NCBI RefSeq assembly: GCF_000027125.1
Contig: NC_017626.1
Strand: one strand, 5' to 3'
Length of the DNA stretch: 64,000 nt
DNA from: Escherichia coli 042
Lineage (GTDB): Bacteria > Pseudomonadota > Gammaproteobacteria > Enterobacterales > Enterobacteriaceae
Numbering within the stretch: the first letter of the stretch is position 1; every line of letters starts with the position of its first letter. The notes under the pieces were generated by a model, which worked only from the letters and a program-made list of their open reading frames with translations, ran no database searches and was not told where the DNA came from. This document shows positions 1 through 25,352 of the stretch, piece by piece. The position numbers and the translations under genes are program-made.

Positions 1-469
1 TACAGGGTTCGGTGATGGTATAGCGGTATTTGTGTGCGCCTGTGCGTTCCGGTACAACACACCCCGGCGCATAAGGATGAAGTGATTTTGGCTGCCCGTC
101 CTGCCCCCACTCAATAACCGCATAGGCGTTACCGTTCAGCAGACAGTGACGCATCATTGTGCGTTTAAACTGGTAAGGTGTCTGGCACGAATTAGGCTGC
201 TCATTCAGCAGAATATCTACCGGATGACTGTCCAGCCATTCCCGCGCCTCCCTGCCCTTGTCATTACGTACCAGATACAGATAACACGGCATCGTGGCCA
301 CCGCCTCAGCGATGACAGAAACCGCGTTCATCACAGCAGGCAATGATTCAGCCGTCCCGGCAGAAACATATTCTCCGGATCCGGTATTCGGTACGCCGGA
401 CAGCGCCAGAAAATCATCAATGGACAGGTTACGTTGCTCGCTTTTTTTACGACTAAAAGGCCACCACAT
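1..469 (-). CDS. phage portal protein, HK97-type (N-terminal part only; gene continues beyond window start)
   Basis: Hand translation of minus strand from ATG at 469-467 gives MWWPFSRKKSEQRNLSIDDFLAL..., an N-terminus typical of HK97-family portals; start overlaps protease stop (ATGA). Absent from ORF track because the stop lies outside the window. Confidence 0.5.
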   Translation of the reverse strand, partial: MWWPFSRKKSEQRNLSIDDFLALSGVPNTGSGEYVSAGTAESLPAVMNAVSVIAEAVATMPCYLYLVRNDKGREAREWLDSHPVDILLNEQPNSCQTPYQFKRTMMRHCLLNGNAYAVIEWGQDGQPKSLHPYAPGCVVPERTGAHKYRYTITEPC

Positions 470-470
470 A

Positions 471-1031
471 TCACAACCCCGCCAGTTCAGCCCAGCGATG
501 ACGATTATTTCCTGCCGGGCGTAATTCAGGGTGCTGTGCAAACAACGAACGGTGGGCAATCTCCACGCCAGATTCTGGATAAGCAGGCATCGACGTTATT
601 GTGATTTCTCGGAGTTCAGCGGCGGTTACGGTACGCAAATACGGTTTTTGCGCGATATTCCATTCTTCGCATAATGCGCGAAAGCCAAAGCTCATTCCTG
701 TAATGTCGCCACGCGACACCAGCGTGAGCACATCTTTTCCAAGCTGGGTATCAGGCGGTGTCAGTTCAAAACGTAGCCCGGTGTTGTCCCCAGTCAGTAC
801 CAGAGTGCCGGATTTGGTGCGCCCCAGCAGTTGGGTATAGTCATGCTCATACAGGCAGCGCACATCATTACCCGCCGCCAGATAGTCAGCAAAAGCCCCC
901 GGCGTGAACTGTTCGCGGAATTCGTCCCAGATAATTTCTGAAAGGCTGTTCCAGCGAACGGCATACCCCACCAGCTTTTTATTGCTGGCGGTCAGTTCAG
1001 ATGTGCGGATTTCAAAATCGGTGTTTTTCAT
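471..1031 (-). CDS. HK97-family prohead maturation protease (S78)
   Basis: 186 aa; motif pattern VGYA..WN...D.F.E.F.PGAF......HD...LGRT.SGTL.L..D..GL.F......GD..G.SFGF typical of prohead proteases. Confidence 0.8.
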   Translation of the reverse strand: MKNTDFEIRTSELTASNKKLVGYAVRWNSLSEIIWDEFREQFTPGAFADYLAAGNDVRCLYEHDYTQLLGRTKSGTLVLTGDNTGLRFELTPPDTQLGKDVLTLVSRGDITGMSFGFRALCEEWNIAQKPYLRTVTAAELREITITSMPAYPESGVEIAHRSLFAQHPELRPAGNNRHRWAELAGL

Positions 1032-1085
1032 CGGTGTACTCCATAAAGCTGAAAAAGGAGGCCGCAGCCTCCTCCTTACTCATGA

Positions 1086-2255
1086 CTAGCCAGCTTTCAT
1101 TTCCAGAATTTTGATGGCGTTTGAATCCACCACACCACCGCCCAGATATTTATCCGTGTGGACCTTGTAGAATCCGGGTTCAGTAATGTTGTCCGGTCGG
1201 GTGCGAATCCCTGTTACATGATCAACGATGAAATAACCACGACTGAAATCGCCAACCGCTAGCGGTGCTTTTCCTGCGCCGATGTCCGGCATGGACTCCA
1301 GGCAGAAAACAGGACGACCAAGCAACATATCCGGCGCACCTTCTTTAAGGCTGTCGCGCCAGATATAATCGCCATTCTCATTTTTCAGCTTCTGTAGTGT
1401 CCCTGCCGTGCCCGAGTTCATCACCCAGACGGCATTTTTGCGGTATTTCGCTTTCAGCTTGTAGAGAATGTCGATCAGTTCGTCCGCTGTAATGGCGGTT
1501 CCACTTGCCGCTACCACTTTTTCAATGGTGCCAAAAGCGCGGGTTTTGTCACTGGTCGCCGCACGGGTGTAAGCCATGAAGCCTTTCGGCTTGCCGTTAC
1601 CGTCGCCATTAACAAAATCATCCTCTTCGGTGCTGGCGAACGTGTCGGCAATTTCGGAGGATAACCAGCCCAGAATATCCACCTCTGAAAAATCCAGGAT
1701 TTCCTGCGTGGTTTTCGGGTAGGCGTAGATCGGATTCAGCTTGATGGTTACACGTTCAATTTTCGGGGTGTTGGTTTCACTACGTGCGCTGCCTTCTGTG
1801 CCTCGTCCTACAGTTGCGCCGCCAGTGGAAACCAGTTTCTGAAACTCATTTGATTTTGCGGTCTTCACGGTCGCGATCACGCGCATAACACTGTCATCCT
1901 GTAGCTGGCGCATGACTTCGCGATCAAGCTCAGGAATTACGGTATATCCGCCATCCCTGCCGCTGTCAGTGCTGGTGGTCAGTGATCGCACATCTCCGGT
2001 TACGATGTAGTTACGCAATTCATCAGATGATAATTTCTGGATGCCCGTTCCTGGCTTGCTGCGTTCTTCATCAGCCACAGACTCGAGGCGGGAAATTTCT
2101 GTGTCGAGGGAATCGGCTTTTGCACGCAGTTCATCAAACTGTTTGCCCTCGTCATCGTTCAGGCTGCGGTTTTCACTGTCGGCTTTTTCCAGCAGGGATC
2201 GCATCTGGTTTTTCAGGGCGGTTTTTTGCTGGCGGAGTTCGATTAATTTCTTCAT
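1086..2255 (-). CDS. HK97-type major capsid protein with N-terminal coiled-coil delta/scaffold domain
   Basis: 389 aa; charged coiled-coil N-terminus then FVNGDGNG...NSGT...GDYIW pattern characteristic of HK97-fold capsid proteins. Confidence 0.85.
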   Translation of the reverse strand: MKKLIELRQQKTALKNQMRSLLEKADSENRSLNDDEGKQFDELRAKADSLDTEISRLESVADEERSKPGTGIQKLSSDELRNYIVTGDVRSLTTSTDSGRDGGYTVIPELDREVMRQLQDDSVMRVIATVKTAKSNEFQKLVSTGGATVGRGTEGSARSETNTPKIERVTIKLNPIYAYPKTTQEILDFSEVDILGWLSSEIADTFASTEEDDFVNGDGNGKPKGFMAYTRAATSDKTRAFGTIEKVVAASGTAITADELIDILYKLKAKYRKNAVWVMNSGTAGTLQKLKNENGDYIWRDSLKEGAPDMLLGRPVFCLESMPDIGAGKAPLAVGDFSRGYFIVDHVTGIRTRPDNITEPGFYKVHTDKYLGGGVVDSNAIKILEMKAG

Positions 2256-2541
2256 GAAGGTTTTCTCGTATTGGTTAAGATTCAGGACGTGAAACCAACA
2301 CGGAGGGAGCGCCGCCCGACACTCTCGGCATCTCGCAGATCAACCCGGCATCGCGCAGGGGGTCAGGCGGCATTGTGGCGGCTCACGTCTGAGTGCCACA
2401 CGCCAACATATACATAAAAATCAGTATGTAAACACCTGTCAGTAAGGCCGAACAACCACGAAAAAACACGAACAAATAATTTACAAAAGAAGTAAACCAT
2501 GGCCTATTATTGCTACCTCTGACTACAACAAAGGACGCATC

Positions 2542-3048
2542 ATGAATTTAAGCGCAATGGTATACCCTGATACTTTCATAATTAATGGCGAATCATTTAA
2601 AGGTAAAAGAAACGCAAAAGAAAACAAGGTATTAATTCCATATACAAATGAACCGGAAGTAACTATTGGTCAACACATTATCCAGTGTGTCGGTAAAAAC
2701 GAGATAAATCTAAAAATTATAGATATGAAGTTGCTTCCCAATGGAACCCTCAGACAGGGAACCAACCATCCAAATATGTTGACGCTCTATATTGAAAATA
2801 TCACGGGAAATGAACATATGACGCCACCTAAAAGTAATACATTTAACATTGGTTCAATTAGTGGTAATCAAGTGCAGATAGGTGAGCATAACCATATGCT
2901 GGTAAACATCAGCATCACTGAACTGGTTGAAAAAGTCTCTAAATCGGGGGATGTACAAGCCAAATCAGTATTAAAGCAGTTACTGGAAAACAGTACCGTT
3001 GCCAGCATTGTTGGGGCTGGCGCAAGTGCCTTAATAGGCTTACTGTAA
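2542..3048 (+). CDS. hypothetical protein, AT-rich orphan cargo gene in satellite island
   Basis: 168 aa ORF with AAAGGA RBS upstream; only sizeable plus-strand gene in a minus-strand block; strongly AT-rich codon usage; hydrophobic Gly/Ala-rich C-terminus (VASIVGAGASALIGLL); no recognisable family. Confidence 0.55.
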   Translation: MNLSAMVYPDTFIINGESFKGKRNAKENKVLIPYTNEPEVTIGQHIIQCVGKNEINLKIIDMKLLPNGTLRQGTNHPNMLTLYIENITGNEHMTPPKSNTFNIGSISGNQVQIGEHNHMLVNISITELVEKVSKSGDVQAKSVLKQLLENSTVASIVGAGASALIGLL

Positions 3049-3083
3049 AAAAATGGCCTGGATTTTACCAGGCCTTTATCATT

Positions 3084-3371
3084 TTACCGTTTCACGGGAT
3101 CCCGCATTCTGCTTCTTAGTTTCCACAGGTATTCGATCATCGCTTCCACCTGCTCACGGTTGGTTGCGAAAATTTCCCCGGTCAGTGAGCTGCGCAGAAA
3201 ATCATGATGATCCACAACAAACAACGCATCGGAAGAAAGCAGACGGCGATATTTTTTTGCTGTCGTGGTTTCCAGATCATCAAAACCATGAAACTTTTTA
3301 TGTTGCTGAACTTCTTCAAATGTCACAGGCATGTTTCCTCCTGCTACCACGATACCAGAAACAGTTAACAA
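3084..3371 (-). CDS. hypothetical protein
   Basis: 95 aa ORF co-oriented with island replication genes; no recognisable motif. Confidence 0.35.
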   Translation of the reverse strand: MLTVSGIVVAGGNMPVTFEEVQQHKKFHGFDDLETTTAKKYRRLLSSDALFVVDHHDFLRSSLTGEIFATNREQVEAMIEYLWKLRSRMRDPVKR

Positions 3372-3673
3372 CCGTTATCAATTATCCCCTTTTTTTTCGG
3401 GTAGTTCCTGAACATCTCACCGCCAGGTTTCTGTAAGCCCATCCCGGTATGTGTGCGGTTTATGGCCTCTTTCAGTATTCCGAAATTATCCGGTATGACT
3501 GGTTGGCGCGCTGCCTTACGGATACATTCCGCGCGACGCTTTGCCACCTGTTCGCGCTCCTTGTCAGTGCTCACCAGCCACATAACATCAGCCCAACGTG
3601 CCGCCGCTCTCCGGTACAGCCCTTTAGCCTCCAGTTCTTCCGCTTTGCTGTCTTTAATCATGCTGTACCTCAC
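3365..3673 (-). CDS. PerC-family transcriptional activator-like protein
   Basis: 102 aa; MIKDSKAEELEAKGLYRRAAARWADVM resembles PerC-family N-terminus. Confidence 0.5.
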   Translation of the reverse strand: MRYSMIKDSKAEELEAKGLYRRAAARWADVMWLVSTDKEREQVAKRRAECIRKAARQPVIPDNFGILKEAINRTHTGMGLQKPGGEMFRNYPKKKGIIDNGC

Positions 3674-3676
3674 TGC

Positions 3677-4102
3677 TTAAAACGGTATCCCGTCCCCGTA
3701 CGGATCATCGTGCTGGCCTGTCTGTTGTTTTGCCCTGTTCAGTGCGTCAGTAGCCTGGCCCTGCTGGCCTTTTTTGCCGCCCGGTCGCGCCGTTCGCGCA
3801 CTGATTACGCTGTCTGCGATGACCTGCCAGCCCTGCCGCATTTCGCCGTTCTGGCCTGTCCACTGGCTTACCTGCATGTTACCCGCCACACTCACCAGTT
3901 CGCCTTTCTGGTGTTTTGCCAGTGCATCGGCCTGTCTGCCAAACGCCAGGACGGATAACCACATCGTCGCCGTTCCGTCATCTGCCTGGCTGCACGGCAG
4001 GGGAACCGCCATACTCGCCATAGCCATTTGTGTCCCCTTGCTGGTGGTCTTTAACTGCGGGTCAGCCACCAGCCGCCCGTAAGCCGCTATCTGTGCTGTC
4101 AT
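3677..4102 (-). CDS. single-stranded DNA-binding protein-like (OB-fold)
   Basis: 141 aa; OB-fold-like core followed by Gly/Gln-rich tail and acidic C-terminal end (DDPYGDGIPF) as in SSB proteins. Confidence 0.55.
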   Translation of the reverse strand: MTAQIAAYGRLVADPQLKTTSKGTQMAMASMAVPLPCSQADDGTATMWLSVLAFGRQADALAKHQKGELVSVAGNMQVSQWTGQNGEMRQGWQVIADSVISARTARPGGKKGQQGQATDALNRAKQQTGQHDDPYGDGIPF

Positions 4103-4312
4103 GCTGTCTGTTCTCCGGTTTTAACGTTGATTGTTACGCTTGTTTACACCCTTACGGTGAAATTCTGCGGGTTATAATCGCACTTTTGCGGGTTATAACT
4201 GCCGTTTTGCGGGTTACGTGCGGGTTACTGATTTCCTTTTTATTCATACAGTTAATGCACTTATACACAGGATAACCCGCATAACCCGCAACTTTTCACC
4301 TCACACAGGGGG

Positions 4313-6433
4313 TTAATCTTCTGCCTCAGGCTGGAACATCAGCACGTAAAAAACATGCTGCTTCCCCCCAATTTTGCCGAGCGCCTTTTTCTTGTAACGG
4401 CGATCGTTACCCGCTTCCAGCATTCCGGCAGCACTCAACGCGCGGGCAAAGTGAGACGGATTAAATCCCTGTGCTATCTCACCCTCAAATACATGCGGGA
4501 ACGTGTAAAAACGGAACTCGTCATCTTCGTTTCTGATACTCCCCTTTCTGTATCCGGCAAGCTCTTTAATCGGTAAATCACGCTCGTCGGTGTTGGGCCA
4601 CGGAAGGTATCTGCTGAATCCGAACGACGCTAAAAAAGCCTCTGCCTGTTCAACCATCTGTTTAAACTCCCTGTTACCCGTGCCGAACTCCTTCACCCAG
4701 GCATTAAAATTATGCTGAATGGCATCGCGGCACGCCTGAACATCCCAACCAGTAATATGGACGGAAAGCACCAGCGCCGACTCCAGCATGGCGAATCGTT
4801 CCCCCACACGGTGAACCTGTTCGCCGTAACTCTCCGGTATCAGGTTGCGCCACCGTTCACGGCATGCCCTTACCGTATCCTTTGCCTCCTGCTGGTGGTC
4901 TGCCAGCCATTTAACCCATTCACGCCCCGCCGCCCCGTGATTTTCTGTCCAGGCATCCTTTAACGCGTCTGCGTGTGCCTTTCCGGTGCTGTATTCGTGA
5001 AACTGCGTGGCTTTTTCCATTGGCACGTTAAGCAGGCGGACAAGCTGCCCCGCCTTGACTTTTATCCCCTCCGTTTTGAGGAATGTCTCAACGTCCATTT
5101 CTCCGGTGCTGATTGCCACCGTGCGCCAGTGTTTGATCTCCCTGTTGCCGCCGTCCTTCGCCCCCTGTAATTTCCCCGAACCGTTAAACAGCGTATAAGC
5201 CGACGTGGACACTTCCCGCGCGTTTCCGGCCTGACCTATTTCATCCAGGGGTAATAGCCCGTCATTGTGCGCCTCTGCCTCGTTGGCGATGCCTAACGCT
5301 GTACCGTACCAGGTCAGCCGTTGCGCGTCCGGCTCTCCCCATAAACTGGATGCGATGTTCTGTGTGGTGGTTTTCCCTGCCGATGACTGTTCGAAAAGAT
5401 GTACCCCGAAGCCGTCAGCACCCACCAGCCCGATTAATGGTGCGGATAACGATACCGCCACACCCAGCATCATGGACGGATTACCACCAGCCAGCCGCGC
5501 AACGGTATCGCGCCAGCCCTCCGCCGTTCCTGCCACAGAATAGCCATTAACGGCAGCCGTTTTTCCGGTAAACAGGATCGGTTTTTCAGACTCACCAATG
5601 ACTGAACCGTCCGGCATGATGTACGCACCAAAATGCCAGCCCGTTGTTGTGCTTAACTGCCATTCCTCATGGTTTCCGCTTAACTGCATCCAGTCAGCCA
5701 GGATAGCCCTGTATTTGCCGTTAGTTGTTACGTTAAGGCCGTGGTCTTTCAGCAACCGCCAGCCGTCACGGTCGCCAATGCCCCCGCACGGAACCGCCAT
5801 TGTGATGACTTCATGGTTTGCGGGTTTCTTCCAGCGCATCACGCGGTAATGCTCTTTGCCGATTGTCCCCGTTCCCAGTAGTTCAAGCGGGGAACATAAC
5901 CACGTCTCAGGCCGGATAATTTCGCCTGACTGCTTGTCAACTTTGGGCGTTACCCAGAAAACACCATCGGCGCGACTTTCAACGCGGGGCTTTAATTCAT
6001 CATCGCCCTGGCTTTCTGTGATTTTTTTCTTTAAGGGCAACACCAGACTTTCCCCGCGCTCGTATTCGTCTTTCAGCCGGGCAAGCTGCGGTGTCCAGTC
6101 CTCCAGTAGTTCACCGTTCTCGTCACAAAAACTGGCTTCCTTAACACCAGCCACTGCCAGCAGGGTTTCAATCTGTAACGCCTGTCTGTCATCCAGCTTT
6201 CCGGCACGTCTGACCATGGCGCGTAACCGTCCATCATCCACAATACGCAGGTTTTCCAGATTACCCAGGTCACGCCGCCCGAGATAAACAGGTGGTATTT
6301 TGTCGCCGCGCTTTCTGGCTTCTCCGCCCTGCATGTAATGCTCTGCGTGGCTGTATGCGTCATCCCCCGCAAAAATCACTGCATCCTCGCCTTTATCTTT
6401 CGGTAACAGTTTTACGTTCGGTGCCAGTTTCAT
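4313..6433 (-). CDS. satellite/P4-family primase-helicase-like replication protein (DUF927/Toprim-like)
   Basis: 706 aa; central Walker A-like SSAGKTT; size and position after int/alpA match replication proteins of P4-like and PICI elements. Confidence 0.6.
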   Translation of the reverse strand: MKLAPNVKLLPKDKGEDAVIFAGDDAYSHAEHYMQGGEARKRGDKIPPVYLGRRDLGNLENLRIVDDGRLRAMVRRAGKLDDRQALQIETLLAVAGVKEASFCDENGELLEDWTPQLARLKDEYERGESLVLPLKKKITESQGDDELKPRVESRADGVFWVTPKVDKQSGEIIRPETWLCSPLELLGTGTIGKEHYRVMRWKKPANHEVITMAVPCGGIGDRDGWRLLKDHGLNVTTNGKYRAILADWMQLSGNHEEWQLSTTTGWHFGAYIMPDGSVIGESEKPILFTGKTAAVNGYSVAGTAEGWRDTVARLAGGNPSMMLGVAVSLSAPLIGLVGADGFGVHLFEQSSAGKTTTQNIASSLWGEPDAQRLTWYGTALGIANEAEAHNDGLLPLDEIGQAGNAREVSTSAYTLFNGSGKLQGAKDGGNREIKHWRTVAISTGEMDVETFLKTEGIKVKAGQLVRLLNVPMEKATQFHEYSTGKAHADALKDAWTENHGAAGREWVKWLADHQQEAKDTVRACRERWRNLIPESYGEQVHRVGERFAMLESALVLSVHITGWDVQACRDAIQHNFNAWVKEFGTGNREFKQMVEQAEAFLASFGFSRYLPWPNTDERDLPIKELAGYRKGSIRNEDDEFRFYTFPHVFEGEIAQGFNPSHFARALSAAGMLEAGNDRRYKKKALGKIGGKQHVFYVLMFQPEAED

Positions 6434-6729
6434 TTTTTACCTCTGGATGCGCTGAGCATGCTTTTTATTTTCTTAATATTTTCCCGTGCTTTTTCCCTGC
6501 TGGTGGGCTTACCGCGTGTTGCGTTCTGTACCAGAGAAAAATCACGCCGGAACTGATAAACAGGCATCACGCAGTCATAGCCGTACCCATCACGGCGGTA
6601 AGTAACGCACCGTCCCGCCACGCTTTTAATCGTTACCGTGCCGCCGTAGTTATCCCGGAAAATATCGCCGGGGCGGATTTCAGGCCGAGCGGGGCCGCTG
6701 GCAGTAAAGCCAGAAATTTTCTGTTTCAT
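6430..6729 (-). CDS. hypothetical protein
   Basis: 99 aa ORF, stop overlaps primase start; basic C-terminus. Confidence 0.4.
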   Translation of the reverse strand: MKQKISGFTASGPARPEIRPGDIFRDNYGGTVTIKSVAGRCVTYRRDGYGYDCVMPVYQFRRDFSLVQNATRGKPTSREKARENIKKIKSMLSASRGKK

Positions 6730-6734
6730 GGTTT

Positions 6735-6968
6735 TTATTTCCCGGTGTGTTGCTCTTTATATCTGTCGTGCAAGATGTCTATTTCTTGCAGTTCATTTAT
6801 TACAGGCTCAAGAAGCGTTATTAATGCTGTTGCAATATTGCTGTTGCGTTTATCTCTTTCATTATCGCCAAGCGTTTCAAGCCATAAGCGCAATATTTCA
6901 AGCATGTTTTCACTGTAAGCAAGTGCGCTGTATGCATGATCTACTGTGTCATTGTAAATATCATGCAT
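6735..6968 (-). CDS. hypothetical protein
   Basis: 77 aa ORF tightly packed in operon. Confidence 0.35.
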   Translation of the reverse strand: MHDIYNDTVDHAYSALAYSENMLEILRLWLETLGDNERDKRNSNIATALITLLEPVINELQEIDILHDRYKEQHTGK

Positions 6969-6971
6969 GGC

Positions 6972-7172
6972 TCACCCCCCCTGAATATTCGCGTTAATCA
7001 TTCCGACACGCTCTGCGAGTTCCTGTAATGATTCCCTTGTTGCGACAATTGCTTCATCTGGCAGGTGGTAATTACTCACCACGCGACCTTTATCCACATT
7101 GACTAGCAACTGCCCGGTGAATTTCTCACGAAACTGGATGCGGTTAAGGTCGGTAAGTGACAGGTTAATCAT
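6972..7172 (-). CDS. hypothetical protein
   Basis: 66 aa ORF, first gene after regulatory region. Confidence 0.35.
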   Translation of the reverse strand: MINLSLTDLNRIQFREKFTGQLLVNVDKGRVVSNYHLPDEAIVATRESLQELAERVGMINANIQGG

Positions 7173-7445
7173 GGTGTACCCCCTGACGAATACGGGCGGC
7201 GAATACCATCACGCAGCCAGCCGGGGATTGCTGGCGTGCTTCCTGTTCGCTGGTGGCCTCAATGGTAATCACGCGCGGTTGTGCCGTGCTCAGGGCGATA
7301 AAACGCCAGATATATTTATTCAGGTTGTGCGAGTCCCGCCCTTGCGGGTGTGTGGTATGATTTCTCATAGCTACCTCGATACTCTTGCTATCGTTGGTGG
7401 TTAGACGCCCTGCATGTGTTGCGAGCACTGCGGGGCGTTGCTTAA

Positions 7446-7556
7446 TTTGAGTGACAAAACTCAAACTGTGCGCACAGATTAAAATCATGTGTGCGCACAT
7501 GTCAATACTTAACATCTCATTTTTTTTGCTGTATTGTGTGCGCCCATAAAGTCCAT
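7446..7556. promoter_or_regulatory. candidate operator/switch region of the satellite island
   Basis: Perfect palindrome TGTGCGCACA at 7467-7476 and 7490-7499 (23 bp centre-to-centre), half-site TGTGCGCC at 7547; inverted repeat TTTGAGT-N6-ACTCAAA at 7446-7465; lies between oppositely oriented gene blocks. Confidence 0.5.
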
Positions 7557-7573
7557 TTAAGTGAGGTGCATCA

Positions 7574-7771
7574 ATGTCTAGCGGTAACACAAACAACAAA
7601 TCAGCAAAGAAAAATATTCGATTCCCACATGAGCTTATAGATGGGATTGATGCCAGCGTTGAACAAGAAAAATTAACTAATCCTAGTGCTAATTTTTCCG
7701 CATGGGTCTTAGATGCCTGTGGACGCAAATTAAAATATGAACAGCGCCGGAAGGCCAAAGAATCAGAATAA
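7574..7771 (+). CDS. small DNA-binding protein, possibly ribbon-helix-helix (candidate island regulator)
   Basis: 65 aa ORF immediately downstream of palindrome cluster; fold assignment is a guess. Confidence 0.4.
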   Translation: MSSGNTNNKSAKKNIRFPHELIDGIDASVEQEKLTNPSANFSAWVLDACGRKLKYEQRRKAKESE

Positions 7772-7813
7772 TCACTATCAGCGCCGTGGTGTGAGTAACT
7801 ACGGCGCATTGCT

Positions 7814-8002
7814 ATGCAGGACAACACAATGACCGATAAAGAATTGACCAAAACATTATCACCGACACGGAAAAGACGGCGCAGAAAGATAGAGCATGAA
7901 TCAGAAAGATTCGCACCTTGTTCGTTTGCTCTTGAGAAATTCCTTAAAGAGCGCAGGAAAAAGCTCTCGTTGCAAACCTTGGAACGAACCAAATCTGACT
8001 GA
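7814..8002 (+). CDS. hypothetical small basic protein
   Basis: 62 aa ORF, Arg/Lys-rich. Confidence 0.3.
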   Translation: MQDNTMTDKELTKTLSPTRKRRRRKIEHESERFAPCSFALEKFLKERRKKLSLQTLERTKSD

Positions 8003-8382
8003 TCACATTGCCCACCAGCCGCAAATGTGGCATTGTTGGTGATGCTTTTGTTTTCCCTTGTTCCCACTGGCGACCCTTTTGCGGTCGCCTTTGTTTTGCC
8101 TGTTATCCGGCAATAGTGGCGCTTCGTCACCTGTCTGATATAATTCCACAGCTTATATTCATTTTTTGCGCAGTAGGTTAATTGTTCGCAAGGGCGCTCC
8201 GGCAACGGGGCGCTTTTTGTTTTTACCCACCAGCACAATAAAAATCTTCATTTTCCATTTTTGTAAAATTTCATGCTTTCCGGACGACTGGTCATATGTC
8301 ATTTTTTAGCAGAAGATTTTGCCTTGCTGGTGGGTAGCTTCCCGGTCAACACGATGTACCGTATAATCAACACCGCGTGTGG

Positions 8383-8961
8383 TTACTGAATACGCTCACC
8401 AAAGTAAAACTCAGGCTGGTATTCACGTATCAGCCTTTTTTCTTCTTCCTCCAGCTCACGCTTTTTGCGCTTACATGCCTGTAGCTCCCTCCCCTTCTCA
8501 CTGGCACTTATCTGGTATTGCTCTTTGCGGCGGGAAAAATCCTGTAATGCGCCCCACGGGATACCATAAGCCCCCGTTTTTCTGATACCCGGTATCACAT
8601 TTCTGAATACCCAGTTACTGAAACGATGAGCAAATGTGCCAGGCGTCGTTGCTTTGCGGCTGCGGGCTATTAGTTTGTAGAAACCTGATTCGGAGATAAT
8701 GCTCATATTCTGATTTCCTCCGGGGGTGTAAGTTAAATTTACTCCCTTTTCGTCATCATCAAGCATCTGCAACGCCGTACGCGAATTGGTCAGTTCCAGC
8801 GCAGCACAAACATCCTTTGCAACAAACCACGGATCGCCGTTTAGATACACCACACGAACATCCACGCCATCAAAGCGCAGAACGACCAGATCACGAATAT
8901 CACAGAATTTTTTCACATGACGTGCGTCACCCTTGCCCGTCACGGCAATATTTTTATTCAT
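8383..8961 (-). CDS. Bro-N domain protein (phage antirepressor-like)
   Basis: 192 aa; N-terminal region with WFVAKDVCAALEL motif typical of BRO-N/antirepressor domains. Confidence 0.6.
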   Translation of the reverse strand: MNKNIAVTGKGDARHVKKFCDIRDLVVLRFDGVDVRVVYLNGDPWFVAKDVCAALELTNSRTALQMLDDDEKGVNLTYTPGGNQNMSIISESGFYKLIARSRKATTPGTFAHRFSNWVFRNVIPGIRKTGAYGIPWGALQDFSRRKEQYQISASEKGRELQACKRKKRELEEEEKRLIREYQPEFYFGERIQ

Positions 8962-9018
8962 TGCTTTTTACCTCACATACAAAAAACCCCGCATTGCGTG
9001 GTGCGGGGTTGTCGGTAA

Positions 9019-9327
9019 TTACTTATTGGCGTTTTTGTATGGGCTGTTTACTTCCTTTACTCCTGGCGGATGCATAACCCACCAGAGCACATCAGAGAGC
9101 AACCAGGAAACAGACACTTTCCCTAAATGAGCACGAGCAGGAAATGCTCCCTCCTGTTCAAGTACCCAACGTCTGCTTCTTGAAAGCCCGGTACGATTGG
9201 CACACTCATGTTCGCGTATACGGCGATCATACGGTTCGCCATGATCTTTCAGAATCTGAATGCGTTCTTCGGGTGTAGGATAAATAAATTTTTGCATAAA
9301 AATATCACCTATAAAAAAACCCGCCAA
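9019..9327 (-). CDS. AlpA-like transcriptional regulator
   Basis: 102 aa; GLSRSRRWVLEQEGAFPAR pattern similar to AlpA/phage regulatory family. Confidence 0.5.
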   Translation of the reverse strand: MAGFFIGDIFMQKFIYPTPEERIQILKDHGEPYDRRIREHECANRTGLSRSRRWVLEQEGAFPARAHLGKVSVSWLLSDVLWWVMHPPGVKEVNSPYKNANK

Positions 9328-9360
9328 AAGACGGGTTGATTATATCTCATTTAATTTAGC

Positions 9361-9594
9361 TCAGGGTTTCCATTCACCTTTTACCCATTCCAGCACCTCA
9401 GATAAGCGCCAGACTTTTGTTTGTGGGCCAATACATATTTTTCGTGGAAATTTTCCTTCCTTTTCAAGTAACGATCTGTGTCTCCTGCCAAGAGCGGTTA
9501 ACCATGCACATTCATCTTCCTTAATCATCCTGTCGATTGTTTCATCATTTTCAAGTTCTTCACGCGTAACTATTTGAATCATTACTGTCACCAC
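9361..9594 (-). CDS. alpA: AlpA-family prophage regulatory protein
   Basis: 77 aa; HTH then FPRKICIGPQTKVWRLSEVLEWV, classic AlpA signature; directly downstream of integrase. Confidence 0.65.
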   Translation of the reverse strand: MVTVMIQIVTREELENDETIDRMIKEDECAWLTALGRRHRSLLEKEGKFPRKICIGPQTKVWRLSEVLEWVKGEWKP

Positions 9595-19865: not shown

Positions 19866-20258
19866 CTACTGCCCTGTTTTAACGAAGTTTTTAAAGGAAA
19901 CAACTGCCTGATAGGGGTTTGGTTGACAGCCAAACATATTATCGCAAAAAGGCTTGATGAAAATTCTTGAGGATCCATCTTCATTTGGCATTTTACTCAC
20001 TTGATAAGCGAGGAATGGACTATTTGGAGAGGGATTATAAGTGGAAATTAGCGTGTCTGTCGCCGTTTGAATTTTCCATGAGGAATTATTAGCCAACCAG
20101 AATTGCGCTCGTTTCCAATAAAAGTCACATTGCTTTTCATCATTACATGTTAGTGGCTTCATTGCTTCTGCTTTCAACGCTGGATCGACCTTTGCTGCAC
20201 ACCCTCCCAACATTACTGTTGCAATCATTACACCTGCGACTAAAACAAGTTTCTTCAT
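19866..20258 (-). CDS. putative lipoprotein (prophage moron)
   Basis: 130 aa; signal peptide with lipobox LGGC. Confidence 0.55.
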   Translation of the reverse strand: MKKLVLVAGVMIATVMLGGCAAKVDPALKAEAMKPLTCNDEKQCDFYWKRAQFWLANNSSWKIQTATDTLISTYNPSPNSPFLAYQVSKMPNEDGSSRIFIKPFCDNMFGCQPNPYQAVVSFKNFVKTGQ

Positions 20259-20401
20259 CTCCCTGCCCCATCAATAAAAGTTCGGTTCTCTAATAACTAG
20301 AGTTAATCAACGGAAAAAACGCCGAAGCGGGTTAAGTGCGGGTGCGTTGAGGATGCCTGACACATCAGAGGTGGCGAGGGATTTCTCCCCCGCCAGGTCT
20401 C

Positions 20402-20557
20402 TTACTCCTCAGGTTCGTAAGCTGTGAAGACAGCGACCTCCGTCTGGCCGGTTCGGATTCGTACCTCGCAGAGGTCTTTCCTCGTTACCAGTGCCGTCAC
20501 AATGACGGTTAAACAGATGACGATCAGGGCGATTAGCATCGCCTTTTGCTGCTTCAT
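20402..20557 (-). CDS. hokD: Hok/Gef-family type I toxin
   Basis: MKQQKAMLIALIVICLTVIVTALVTRKDLCEVRIRTGQTEVAVFTAYEPEE, Hok-family 51-aa toxin; longer overlapping frame to 20614 is Mok-like leader. Confidence 0.8.
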   Translation of the reverse strand: MKQQKAMLIALIVICLTVIVTALVTRKDLCEVRIRTGQTEVAVFTAYEPEE

Positions 20558-20848
20558 AGCCTGCTTCTCCTTGCCTTTCGGCGCGTAAGAGGCTAACCTA
20601 GATTTGCCGTTCATAGATTGAGCCTCAGATTAATGTTAAGCGTCTTGCAGGACGCGTAATGTTAACTGGGGCTTTTCTCTATCTGCCTTTTGGTGTTCAT
20701 GCCTGAGACAGATAGCCTCAAGCACCCGCTGCAATTCTACTTAACTCTCCTTTTCCCGCAAACCGTTTTTATCCCCAGCGGCAAATCGAATACACCACCA
20801 GCGCCACCGCCATCGCAATTCCTACCGTTGTTAATGCTTCAGGCCAGC

Positions 20849-21751
20849 TCATTGATTCACCTCCTGCGGCGGTTCTGGTAGCGGCATCCAGTGTGACGGT
20901 TTCCACGACGCACCAGGAATTATCCACCCATCATTAGCGTCAGGATGCCCGGGGATGTAAGTAGCCCATTTCATTCGCCAGTCACCTTTCCTGTCAAACT
21001 CCACGGCAACAAGAACGGCTGTTTTGGTATTCGGCATTCGCTCACTACAGCTTATCCAACCATCCGGAGTTGCCGGAGAGTTGCCCGATAGTGCATTCTG
21101 CTCCAGTGATGCTTTTACAAACCACGCTGCCTGAACTATAACGCCATGAATCCAGCGCAAATCAGCATCGCGATCTTTCTTTTTCATCTTTTCGCCACTT
21201 AAGGCCTTGCTTATGTGGCTGCGTACCAGGTCTTCATGTAATTCCTTCGCCTCCTCAATGGTGAAACCACCAGGCAGAAGAGCCGGAGTTACCGGAGAGC
21301 TGGTTGACGCTTCCGGGATTTCCCGAAAATTATTGGTTGACGAATTCTTGCTTTCCCGAAAGTTTCCGGACTGAAGCATGGCGGTGCGGCAGGCGTTCCA
21401 TATTTCGGCAGCAATATCGCGCTCGCTATCGGTTAATTTGTACGTGGAAACATAGCCAGAGAGCATTTCTACGTTTTCCGGAGTTGCTTCTTCCGGCACT
21501 ACCGGCGCTGGCGGGGCGATGCGTCCAAGCAACTTATTTACCTCTTTCGCCATCGCGTCATATTTATCTAAATGGCGATTAGCTTCTAAGCAGACTCGGC
21601 GCATCTGATCTGAGTTAACTCGTTTAACTGGATCTGCTTCCAGCGATGCCAGCGCAATCCGTGCCAGTTCCATTTGTTCACCACGGGTAAGCCCGTTTTC
21701 AAGCGGATTTTTAATGAACAATTCAATACGTTCTTTGGTAATAGTGGTCAT
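20849..21751 (-). CDS. DUF551 domain-containing prophage protein
   Basis: 300 aa; C-terminal W-rich DUF551-like region (DGWISCSERMP...GWIIPGASWKPSHWMPLPEPP). Confidence 0.55.
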   Translation of the reverse strand: MTTITKERIELFIKNPLENGLTRGEQMELARIALASLEADPVKRVNSDQMRRVCLEANRHLDKYDAMAKEVNKLLGRIAPPAPVVPEEATPENVEMLSGYVSTYKLTDSERDIAAEIWNACRTAMLQSGNFRESKNSSTNNFREIPEASTSSPVTPALLPGGFTIEEAKELHEDLVRSHISKALSGEKMKKKDRDADLRWIHGVIVQAAWFVKASLEQNALSGNSPATPDGWISCSERMPNTKTAVLVAVEFDRKGDWRMKWATYIPGHPDANDGWIIPGASWKPSHWMPLPEPPQEVNQ

Positions 21752-24374: not shown

Positions 24375-25352
24375 TTACCCCCTGAAGCCCGGCGGAATTT
24401 CAGTGTCCGGTTCAGAAATGTGATTCACGCAACGCTGCGCAGGCGAACGCCCCAGGCGGATAACCAGTTCATCCCATTTTTCCCGGAGTTTTGCCGGACT
24501 CATGATGTTTTTTACCCAGAACGAATCCCGCTGGAGACGCCCAAACATTTCACAAATTTGTCTGTGAGTTCTGCCATCCAGCATCCGCATTGTGCGAACG
24601 TCATTGGCCCATGCTGTCCAGTTGGGTTCTTTCGGTCTAGTGATCTCGCCATCATCGCTGGCCGCCTGCTCGTAAAGACTCACGATTCGTCCCCAGATCC
24701 ACTGTGCGCACACCAAATCTTCCTGACTTCCCCACTGGCGTTTTTTCGCACTGAACACAACCGCGTCAGGGTGTCGGGTTAAAAAATCCTGTTCAGCCGT
24801 CTGCGGGTCCGGTTGCGAAGCGTCCGGACAAGAAGATCTTTTATCTGACGGATCAGGTTTTAATACTGACGGATCGGGGTCAATCATCGCCCCCCTAATC
24901 GGCAGTTTTTTATCAACGGTTGATCCATCAAAATTTGACGGGTCAACCGTTGAGGGGTCAATATTTGACGGGTCAACTGTTAACGGGTCATTTTTTGCCG
25001 GGCTAATTTTTCTTTTCGGTTTATATGACTCACGCGCCGCCGCCGCAGCTGCTTCGAGTTTTTCCACATTAAGCCGATAGATATTGCTTACATTACGCCC
25101 ACCGACCTTACGCTCTTCCTTCGTCAGCCAGCCCTCTTTCGCCAGTTCTGCAATAGCCGATTTCACTGTGGATTCACTTCTTGCACCGATCTGACGCCGG
25201 ATAGTTTCAATGGCAGGCCATGACACGCCCTCGTCATTGCTGTAGTCTGCAAGACGGGCCATAACCGCCACCCTGGATAAGATCATGCCGGTGAAGGCGC
25301 ACCCTTCCCAGACAAGACCATGAAGCTTGCTGCTCATAAAACCCCCGAACAC
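24375..25352 (-). CDS. phage replication initiation protein (O-like, N-terminal HTH)
   Basis: 325 aa; N-terminal HTH region, Pro/Asp-rich repeat linker (DPSNIDPSTVDPSNFDGSTVD); follows cro/ydaT. Confidence 0.6.
   Translation of the reverse strand: MFGGFMSSKLHGLVWEGCAFTGMILSRVAVMARLADYSNDEGVSWPAIETIRRQIGARSESTVKSAIAELAKEGWLTKEERKVGGRNVSNIYRLNVEKLEAAAAAARESYKPKRKISPAKNDPLTVDPSNIDPSTVDPSNFDGSTVDKKLPIRGAMIDPDPSVLKPDPSDKRSSCPDASQPDPQTAEQDFLTRHPDAVVFSAKKRQWGSQEDLVCAQWIWGRIVSLYEQAASDDGEITRPKEPNWTAWANDVRTMRMLDGRTHRQICEMFGRLQRDSFWVKNIMSPAKLREKWDELVIRLGRSPAQRCVNHISEPDTEIPPGFRG

Follow-up and report, generated by a model that had tools for sequence, protein, structure and literature searches.

Hok/sok is the textbook type I toxin-antitoxin system, and a Hok-like reading frame inside a prophage of Escherichia coli 042 raises the question of whether that frame belongs to a complete module, with its own antisense RNA and refolding messenger, and what such a module would do for the phage that carries it. 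The window analyzed here is a stretch of 64,000 nucleotides (contig NC_017626.1), in which an earlier sequence-only reading had noticed a 51-amino-acid Hok/Gef-family toxin with a longer, overlapping Mok-like frame at 20402-20620 and had expected a Sok-type antisense RNA in the leader. The system is already known; that observation is confirmed here, and its interpretation is supported and completed. At a probability of roughly 0.88, we consider that the window carries a complete type I toxin-antitoxin module, hok/mok/sok, belonging to the hokD/hokW lineage, in the form of a self-contained prophage cassette of about 450 bp. This reading draws on sequence elements, two alternative predicted folds, their conservation, and identity or near-identity to characterized loci, all of which were observed directly. 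Transcription starts, 3' processing and RNA half-lives at the window locus we infer by analogy.

The toxin gene and its reading frames

The locus lies on the minus strand, which the earlier reading had left unstated. A 70-amino-acid open reading frame in the ORF listing (mok, 20402..20614) translates as MNGKSRLASYAPKGKEKQA-MKQQKAMLIALIVICLTVIVTALVTRKDLCEVRIRTGQTEVAVFTAYEPEE, and an ATG inside it at 20557 begins the 51-amino-acid Hok MKQQKAMLIALIVICLTVIVTALVTRKDLCEVRIRTGQTEVAVFTAYEPEE, encoded by the hokD-type toxin gene hok at 20402..20557 (51 amino acids plus stop). The reading frame is intact, and its product matches the Pfam family HOK_GEF (PF01848) over profile positions 1-42 of 42 (E=3e-23, 81.6 bits, gathering score 22) and is identical to HokD/RelF of E. 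coli K-12; in near-identical loci the gene is named HokD by RefSeq. Judged from its sequence, the window protein is a Hok/Gef-family toxin, and the Pfam match together with the identity to HokD bears out the earlier assignment. The NCBIfam Hok subfamily models also match the protein, with scores below their curated cut-offs (48.5 vs 73), and these matches were left out of the membership assignment. An N-terminal hydrophobic helix (LIALIVICLTVIVTALV) and the cysteines Cys15 and Cys30 can be read directly from the sequence, while the position of the third Hok cysteine is occupied by Tyr47 (UAC), as in hokC/D/E. This codon (20417..20419, minus strand, in the context UUACGAA) corresponds to the reported TadA A-to-I site (Tyr to Cys) of hokC/D/E, where the cysteine is reportedly supplied by RNA editing, with 6% of hokD mRNA being edited (PMC12214031). 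Toxicity in the 042 host and depolarization of the membrane would be expected by analogy with the homologue HokW, which is toxic and identical at 47 of 51 residues.

The longer Mok-like frame is likewise present and has a GAGG Shine-Dalgarno (SD) sequence of its own, and it can now be described more precisely as a 19-codon N-terminal extension in frame with hok; it is not an out-of-frame overlap of the plasmid R1 kind. The interval 20402-20620 does contain these ORFs, but it covers just the two reading frames, whereas the functional unit spans about 20762..20314. These limits were taken from relatives of the locus, collected from viral contigs (IMG/VR) by a pattern in the conserved 5' element, of which 88 distinct hokD-type copies were aligned. 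Homology among the 88 begins near 20762 and ends near 20321, just within a small terminal hairpin, and the module is therefore delimited as a cassette of about 450 bp.

Leader elements, the Sok gene and a predicted RNA switch

The candidate hok promoter (20734..20762, minus strand) consists of a -10 hexamer TAGAAT (20739..20734) and a -35-like sequence TTGCGG/TTTGCG (20762..20756) separated by 16-17 nt, with +1 predicted at G20727. Its -10 region is kept in the 88 relatives and aligns with the TATAAT of K-12 hokC. A strict consensus scan for promoters and terminators over 20200-20900 returned no match, the hok promoter included. Applied to an R1-type locus, the same scan called the hok promoter and missed the established Sok promoter, and the Sok promoters of the window and of the R1-type locus each agree with the consensus at just 7 of 12 positions. 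The negative scan is therefore uninformative with regard to promoters, because it misses an established one. Expression of hok solely by read-through from upstream phage genes, as for K-12 relBEF, was considered and rejected in view of its own conserved promoter and 5' tac element.

From this start the full-length hok mRNA would measure about 414 nt (20314..20727, minus strand), its ends being placed by position 1 of the Rfam model, the distance from the -10 and the U-run after a small hairpin. That 3' terminal hairpin with its U-run (20314..20329, minus strand; CGC-UUCG-GCG-UUUUUU) is weakened in the window (GCGUUUUUU vs GCGGGUUUU): most relatives and K-12 have CCCGC-UUCG-GCGGG-UUUU, and the weakened terminal form GCGTTTTTT occurs in 6 of 91 aligned sequences, the window included. 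Such a degenerate hairpin could alter termination or 3' processing. It is within this hairpin that homology with other loci breaks off, and read-through into the lipoprotein gene downstream is conceivable.

The 5' portion of the mRNA is matched end to end by Rfam RF01794 (20727..20552, 111 bits, gathering score 59, E=1e-25), far more than chance would give. This family bears the name 'sok antitoxin', but it matches 20552-20727 on the hok-sense (minus) strand, with a consensus that begins at tac and extends as far as the hok AUG, so that what it recognizes is the hok leader and not antisense Sok. As proof of an antisense RNA the match was accordingly rejected, and Sok was set instead by alignment to sokC and sokW; strand calls derived from RF01794 would mis-orient Sok.

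All the leader elements of a hok mRNA can be located on the minus strand. The translational activator element, tac (GGGUGCUUGAGG, 20716..20727), lies at the very 5' end; its partner is fbi in the full-length fold, and ucb once the 3' end has been truncated. The fold-back inhibition element, fbi (CCUCAA(C)GCACCC, 20340..20352), lies in the 3' UTR and pairs with tac. The upstream complementary box, ucb, an anti-SD sequence (AGCCCC, 20668..20673) able to pair with either the mok SD or tac, is invariant in a three-way alignment of the window, R1-type hok and K-12 hokC. The mok SD itself (GAGGCU, 20621..20626) has its core GAGG at 20626..20623, 7-8 nt 5' of the mok AUG, and the mok SD of R1 is the same GAGG motif (PMC9841398). 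The downstream complementary box, dcb (AGCCUC, 20589..20594), is the partner of the mok SD both in the truncated fold and in the Rfam consensus structure, and is invariant among the relatives. A search of the leader for fbi/tac fold-back elements had been proposed when the locus was first noticed, and it recovers tac/fbi, ucb and dcb, all conserved. Neither of the two refuting conditions named at that time, a disrupted ORF or a leader lacking its conserved structures, applies.

The predicted folds of this RNA suggest a switch. The full-length 414-nt molecule has a minimum free energy (MFE) of -161.3 kcal/mol (z=-5.98), with tac/fbi as its outermost helix and the mok SD paired to ucb. When 42 nt are taken off the 3' end, leaving 372 nt, the MFE structure flips to tac/ucb plus SD/dcb, and the SD/dcb hairpin carries the mok AUG; this open form is the same as the Rfam consensus structure. 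A closed-to-open switch has been described for the hok mRNA of R1 (PMC9841398), and the modelled exchange of ucb/SD for tac/ucb plus SD/dcb agrees with the R1-type pattern.

With 12 bp, one bulge and an energy of -21.5 kcal/mol, the tac/fbi duplex is the best partnership available to tac anywhere in the mRNA, and 1.2% of 3000 shuffles reach its energy in the window (p≈0.012). An alignment-free test of the duplex gave a better energy than all 50 shuffles at 57 of 104 loci. Energy by itself is thus moderately significant, and the argument for tac/fbi rests for that reason on position and conservation. Mapped on 91 relatives, the full-length fold has standard pairs in 93.9% of its pair cells, a share that drops to 35-42% when partners are slid, and double-sided changes affect 30 pairs as compared with 8.9±2.3 in shuffles; in the 5' hairpin, for example, an A-U pair is swapped for G-C (75 vs 14 sequences). 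For tac/fbi, 97.1% of cells are paired across the relatives, with single changes of the G·U type tolerated in paired bases. No double-sided covariation was found in tac/fbi among the 91 relatives, where compensatory changes are unavailable because tac is invariant in the family and was fixed by the search pattern. Where the duplex stays unchanged, variants of fbi differ at the bulge (C, U or A) or just 3' of the element, with rarer variants hitting a paired base, and in otherwise identical copies of fbi it is the bulged base alone that varies (C/U/A).

On the opposite strand, the expected Sok-type antisense gene can be placed. A plus-strand promoter (20571..20599) combines a -35 TTGCCT (20571-20576) and a -10 TAACCT (20594-20599) over a 17-nt spacer. 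The -10 agrees with the consensus at three of six positions; the promoter is nevertheless kept in the 88 relatives, and both hexamers are those of sokW in phages 933W and Sp5. In the R1-type locus the Sok promoter TTGCGC-17-TATCCT sits at the same position. Takada et al. inactivated sokW by altering the -10 TAACCT, as can be deduced from their mutagenic primer YO-421 (PMC8621323), and this inactivation unleashed HokW toxicity (PMC8621323). The predicted RNA, of about 71-77 nt (20606..20682, plus strand), would start at G20606 and end at about 20677-20682, as mapped from the annotated ends of K-12 sokC and 933W sokW. Its predicted fold (-33 kcal/mol, z=-5.8) leaves the 5' tail (20606-20619) free, followed by a hairpin of 55 nt (20620-20674) and a U-rich 3' end. 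The tail reads GCCGUUCAUAGAUU and is complementary to the region of the mok AUG. What had been anticipated as a Sok-type RNA with an antisense promoter in the leader therefore takes the form of a plus-strand gene that aligns to annotated sokC and sokW, with -35 and -10 hexamers identical to those of sokW: a predicted cis-antisense Sok gene covering the mok start and equipped with a promoter and a terminator-like hairpin.

Between the mok SD and the Sok -10 lies a hypervariable stretch of 22 nt (20600..20621) that serves both strands, comprising the mok SD-AUG spacer and mok codons 1-5 on one and the Sok 5' tail on the other. Pairs of loci differ there by 0.347 per site on average, some nine times the value of about 0.04 found in the flanks. 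The 88 loci show 22 alleles, the window allele being that with the Sok tail given above, and each allele keeps the SD/dcb hairpin at -11 to -16 kcal/mol. We tentatively suggest that this stretch may be a specificity ('immunity-type') determinant, by which modules diversify at the first contact between Sok and its target so that co-resident prophages would not cross-protect one another, although we would not yet give this idea even odds. When the target loop was inspected by eye for a YUNR U-turn motif, several alleles had one, and the window allele did not obviously do so.

Prophage setting, proposed mechanism and role

The module was described from the outset as lying inside a prophage, and its surroundings agree. 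The prophage is lambdoid; the locus occupies its early-right (nin) region and is co-directional with the genes there. A replication O-like gene (25352..24375, minus strand) lies upstream, and the gene for a DUF551 protein (21751..20849, minus strand) immediately precedes hok/sok in gene order. Directly downstream of hok is the gene for a predicted 130-amino-acid lipoprotein (20258..19866, minus strand) with a signal peptide ending in LGGC; the protein matches no Pfam or NCBIfam model and corresponds to phrog_16082, of unknown function, and its gene is probably a moron. There follow on the minus strand a DUF968/HNH protein, the Q antiterminator (17856..17035, minus strand), two tRNAs, an endolysin and the terminase, while the integrase gene (31308-32333) abuts a tRNA-Ser. 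The two tRNAs downstream of Q are tRNA-Arg(tct) and tRNA-Met(cat) (16639-16891, minus strand); in related prophages Ile, Lys, Thr and Gly tRNAs are found there.

An integrase-bearing island of about 15.3 kb is inserted site-specifically inside the prophage terL (window 1-10969, junction 10956-10969). When an intact terL from a related prophage is aligned, its two parts fall on either side of the island and overlap by 14 bp, TTGGTAAAAAAATT; on this basis the ORF at 11983..9560 is a terL(1-344)::integrase chimera. In a relative, where the whole island can be seen, it encodes an integrase, HTH regulators, BRO-N, an Icd-like protein, a DUF927 primase, SSB and PerC together with its own capsid, protease, portal, connector, HNH, TerS and TerL. 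It looks like a capsid-forming satellite of the PICI type residing in the packaging gene of a potential helper. Of 5,426 E. coli genomes, just 18 contain at least 80% of window 1-12500. Beyond the right end of the prophage (32386-64000) are tRNA-Ser(cga), mtfA, tRNA-Asn, a second integrase (33923-34966) and ORFs of 2041 and 3163 amino acids; since ybtS follows the corresponding integrase in a related genome, this region looks like the yersiniabactin High-Pathogenicity Island at asnT.

DNA similar to the module is widespread, being found in 4,938 of 5,426 complete E. coli genomes, and at least 80% of a 511-nt query is covered in 3,817 of the 5,426, in which the gene is annotated as hokD. The number of homologous places per E. 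coli genome has a median of 2 and reaches 9. Decayed copies also occur among the IMG/VR relatives: L026:4287-4863 is a partial tandem duplication of the hok leader with two tac copies 163 nt apart, and in L046, L049, L073 and L006 unrelated DNA replaces or interrupts hok just past its SD or ATG.

A mechanism can be proposed by homology with hok/sok of R1 and hokW/sokW of Sp5. The TAGAAT promoter would give rise to the hok mRNA of about 414 nt, closed by tac/fbi and with ucb hiding the mok SD, and in this full-length state the messenger would be neither translated nor bound by Sok. Slow trimming from the 3' end would remove fbi, whereupon tac would pair with ucb and the mok SD and AUG would enter the SD/dcb hairpin. 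On the open form ribosomes would start at mok, and the in-frame mok would deliver Hok or couple translation to it; alternatively, Sok of about 75 nt would capture the open form, its 5' tail binding over the mok start, and the resulting duplex would be destroyed. In the paradigm, the Sok/hok duplex is destroyed by RNase III. Sok would be made from the stronger promoter and be abundant yet short-lived, so that a halt in its transcription would leave the stored hok mRNA free for translation. Induction or loss of the prophage, or shut-off of the host by another phage, would bring such a halt about, and the 51-amino-acid Hok would then insert in the inner membrane and depolarize the cell.

By analogy with hokW, the most likely role of the module is to assist lysis and phage release upon induction. 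This role is favored because of the hokW experiments, in which hokW-sokW was demonstrated to be a toxin with an RNA antitoxin and mitomycin C induction led to loss of sokW and production of HokW (PMC8621323). That an active module would mainly serve prophage maintenance, by killing cells from which the prophage has been lost, or defense by abortive infection, rather than lysis, is a serious alternative that we hold at somewhat under even odds. The annotation of 933W labels hokW 'prophage maintenance', hok/sok of R1 partly excludes T4 according to papers citing the original study (Pecota and Wood, 1996), and hok genes are about four-fold enriched in prophages (bioRxiv 10.1101/2025.08.07.668861). 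Against it, hok is not enriched beside defense systems (bioRxiv 10.1101/2025.08.07.668861), and the sole experiment on a close prophage-borne relative is the deletion of hokW-sokW, which halves phage release (PMC8621323); the sequence itself does not discriminate among maintenance, defense and lysis assistance.

A second alternative is that the 70-amino-acid in-frame Mok is toxic in its own right, as an N-terminally extended Hok, instead of a mere leader frame coupled to hok. Because mok and hok have a common frame and stop codon, a ribosome starting at the mok AUG would make a protein that includes all of Hok, and Hok is preceded, in almost every relative, by a conserved block, RLASYxPKGKEKQA. 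This block, however, overlaps the Sok promoter, dcb and the hok SD, so that its conservation is explained by RNA and DNA signals. The first five Mok codons are hypervariable, hok retains its own SD (AAGGAG) and its own ATG, and HokW was detected and studied as the 51-amino-acid form (PMC8621323). We regard a toxic Mok as doubtful.

That the module is a structurally intact, physiologically silent relic, carried along with the prophage and never yielding Hok at effective levels, is unlikely given the pattern of constraint. In favor of a relic, the intact hokA (E. coli C), hokB (K-12) and hokC (ECOR24) gave no post-segregational killing or rifampicin activation in the work of Pedersen and Gerdes, as summarized in a later study (bioRxiv 10.1101/2025.08.07.668861), the terminal hairpin is degenerate in the window, and insertions or rearrangements have visibly disrupted several phage-contig relatives (L046, L049, L073, L006). 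Against it, the regulatory elements are all intact and constrained, with paired bases kept where the bulge varies and hypervariable alleles preserving the hairpin, the Hok protein is conserved with differences from K-12 that are all synonymous, and hokW/sokW, 92.8% identical to the window locus, is active in the prophage to which it belongs.

Comparison with known hok/sok systems

As a discovery the locus carries little weight, given that hokW/sokW of Stx phages is characterized, that the enrichment of hok in prophages has been reported and that RefSeq annotates HokD in thousands of genomes. Its uses are minor ones. Annotation pipelines label the toxin CDS alone, and the Mok frame and the Sok RNA are unannotated in the RefSeq genomes inspected. 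Moreover, the hypervariability of the Sok tail could offer a way to examine if toxin-antitoxin modules of co-resident prophages are mutually insulated.

The closest characterized system is hokW/mokW/sokW of the Stx2 phages 933W and VT2-Sakai (Sp5), whose DNA is 92.8% identical to the window locus across 441 nt. The two hok promoter regions differ by 1 mismatch and have the same -10; tac, ucb, dcb and the -35 and -10 hexamers of Sok are likewise identical, and the Sok hairpin differs from that of sokW by 1 nt, in the loop. Like the window mok, mokW is in frame and 70 amino acids long. The differences concern the C-terminus of Hok, which is TAYEPEE in the window and VDYESEK in HokW, and the Sok 5' tail together with mok codons 2-5 (GCCGUUCAUAG in the window, GUUCAGCAUGG in sokW). 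In 933W there is no terminal hairpin after fbi, whereas the window has one. A partial dependence of hokW-sokW on RNase III and Hfq was also reported (PMC8621323). The 933W locus is near the end of the deposited record (at about 58.5 kb of 61.7 kb) and not between the replication and Q genes as in the window, and because 933W thus carries the same cassette elsewhere in its genome, hok/sok behaves as a movable moron.

Plasmid R1 hok/mok/sok (parB) contains the same set of elements in the same order (tac, ucb, mok SD GAGG, dcb, hok SD and fbi), with the Sok promoter at the same place and the same logic of full-length and truncated refolding, in spite of a DNA identity to the window of about 50%; HokW, the close homologue of the window Hok, is 44% identical to R1 Hok. 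By our own reading of the R1-type sequence its mok is out of frame with hok, whereas the window mok is in frame. R1 hok/sok is borne by a plasmid and has a role in post-segregational killing, in contrast to the window locus in its prophage.

Closer in architecture is hokC (gef)/mokC/sokC of K-12, in which mok is likewise in frame with 19 extra codons and Sok overlaps the first 9 nt of mok. Its tac and ucb sequences are nearly identical to those of the window, and the aligned locus is about 81% identical overall. The window Sok hairpin differs by an extra 18-nt GC-rich apical insertion relative to sokC, and K-12 hokC is disrupted on its 3' side by IS186.

The most telling comparison is with hokD (relF) of K-12, the third gene of relBE-hokD in the cryptic prophage Qin, so that both copies reside in lambdoid prophages or their remnants. 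The coding DNA differs from that of the window Hok solely by synonymous changes, and the DNA is about 99% identical, but just from about 16 nt 5' of the ATG through fbi and the terminator. Upstream of this point K-12 hokD is joined to relE and is without the hok promoter, tac, ucb, the mok start, the Sok RNA-coding sequence and the Sok -10. No relBE genes were found upstream of the window hok, and the K-12 relBE-hokD layout is not matched there; the name HokD is thus fair for the protein and not for the locus architecture. K-12 hokD is viewed as inactivated by rearrangement (PMC12214031), and the missing leader and Sok explain why it is regarded as inactive. Alignment to hokD/relF, proposed at the start as a check on the toxin, accordingly yields more than an identical protein. 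Every leader part missing from K-12 hokD is in the window copy, and judged by sequence K-12 hokD is a truncated version of the locus that the window preserves whole. The window copy is in this respect a clean example of the ancestral hokD/relF, complete in all its parts.
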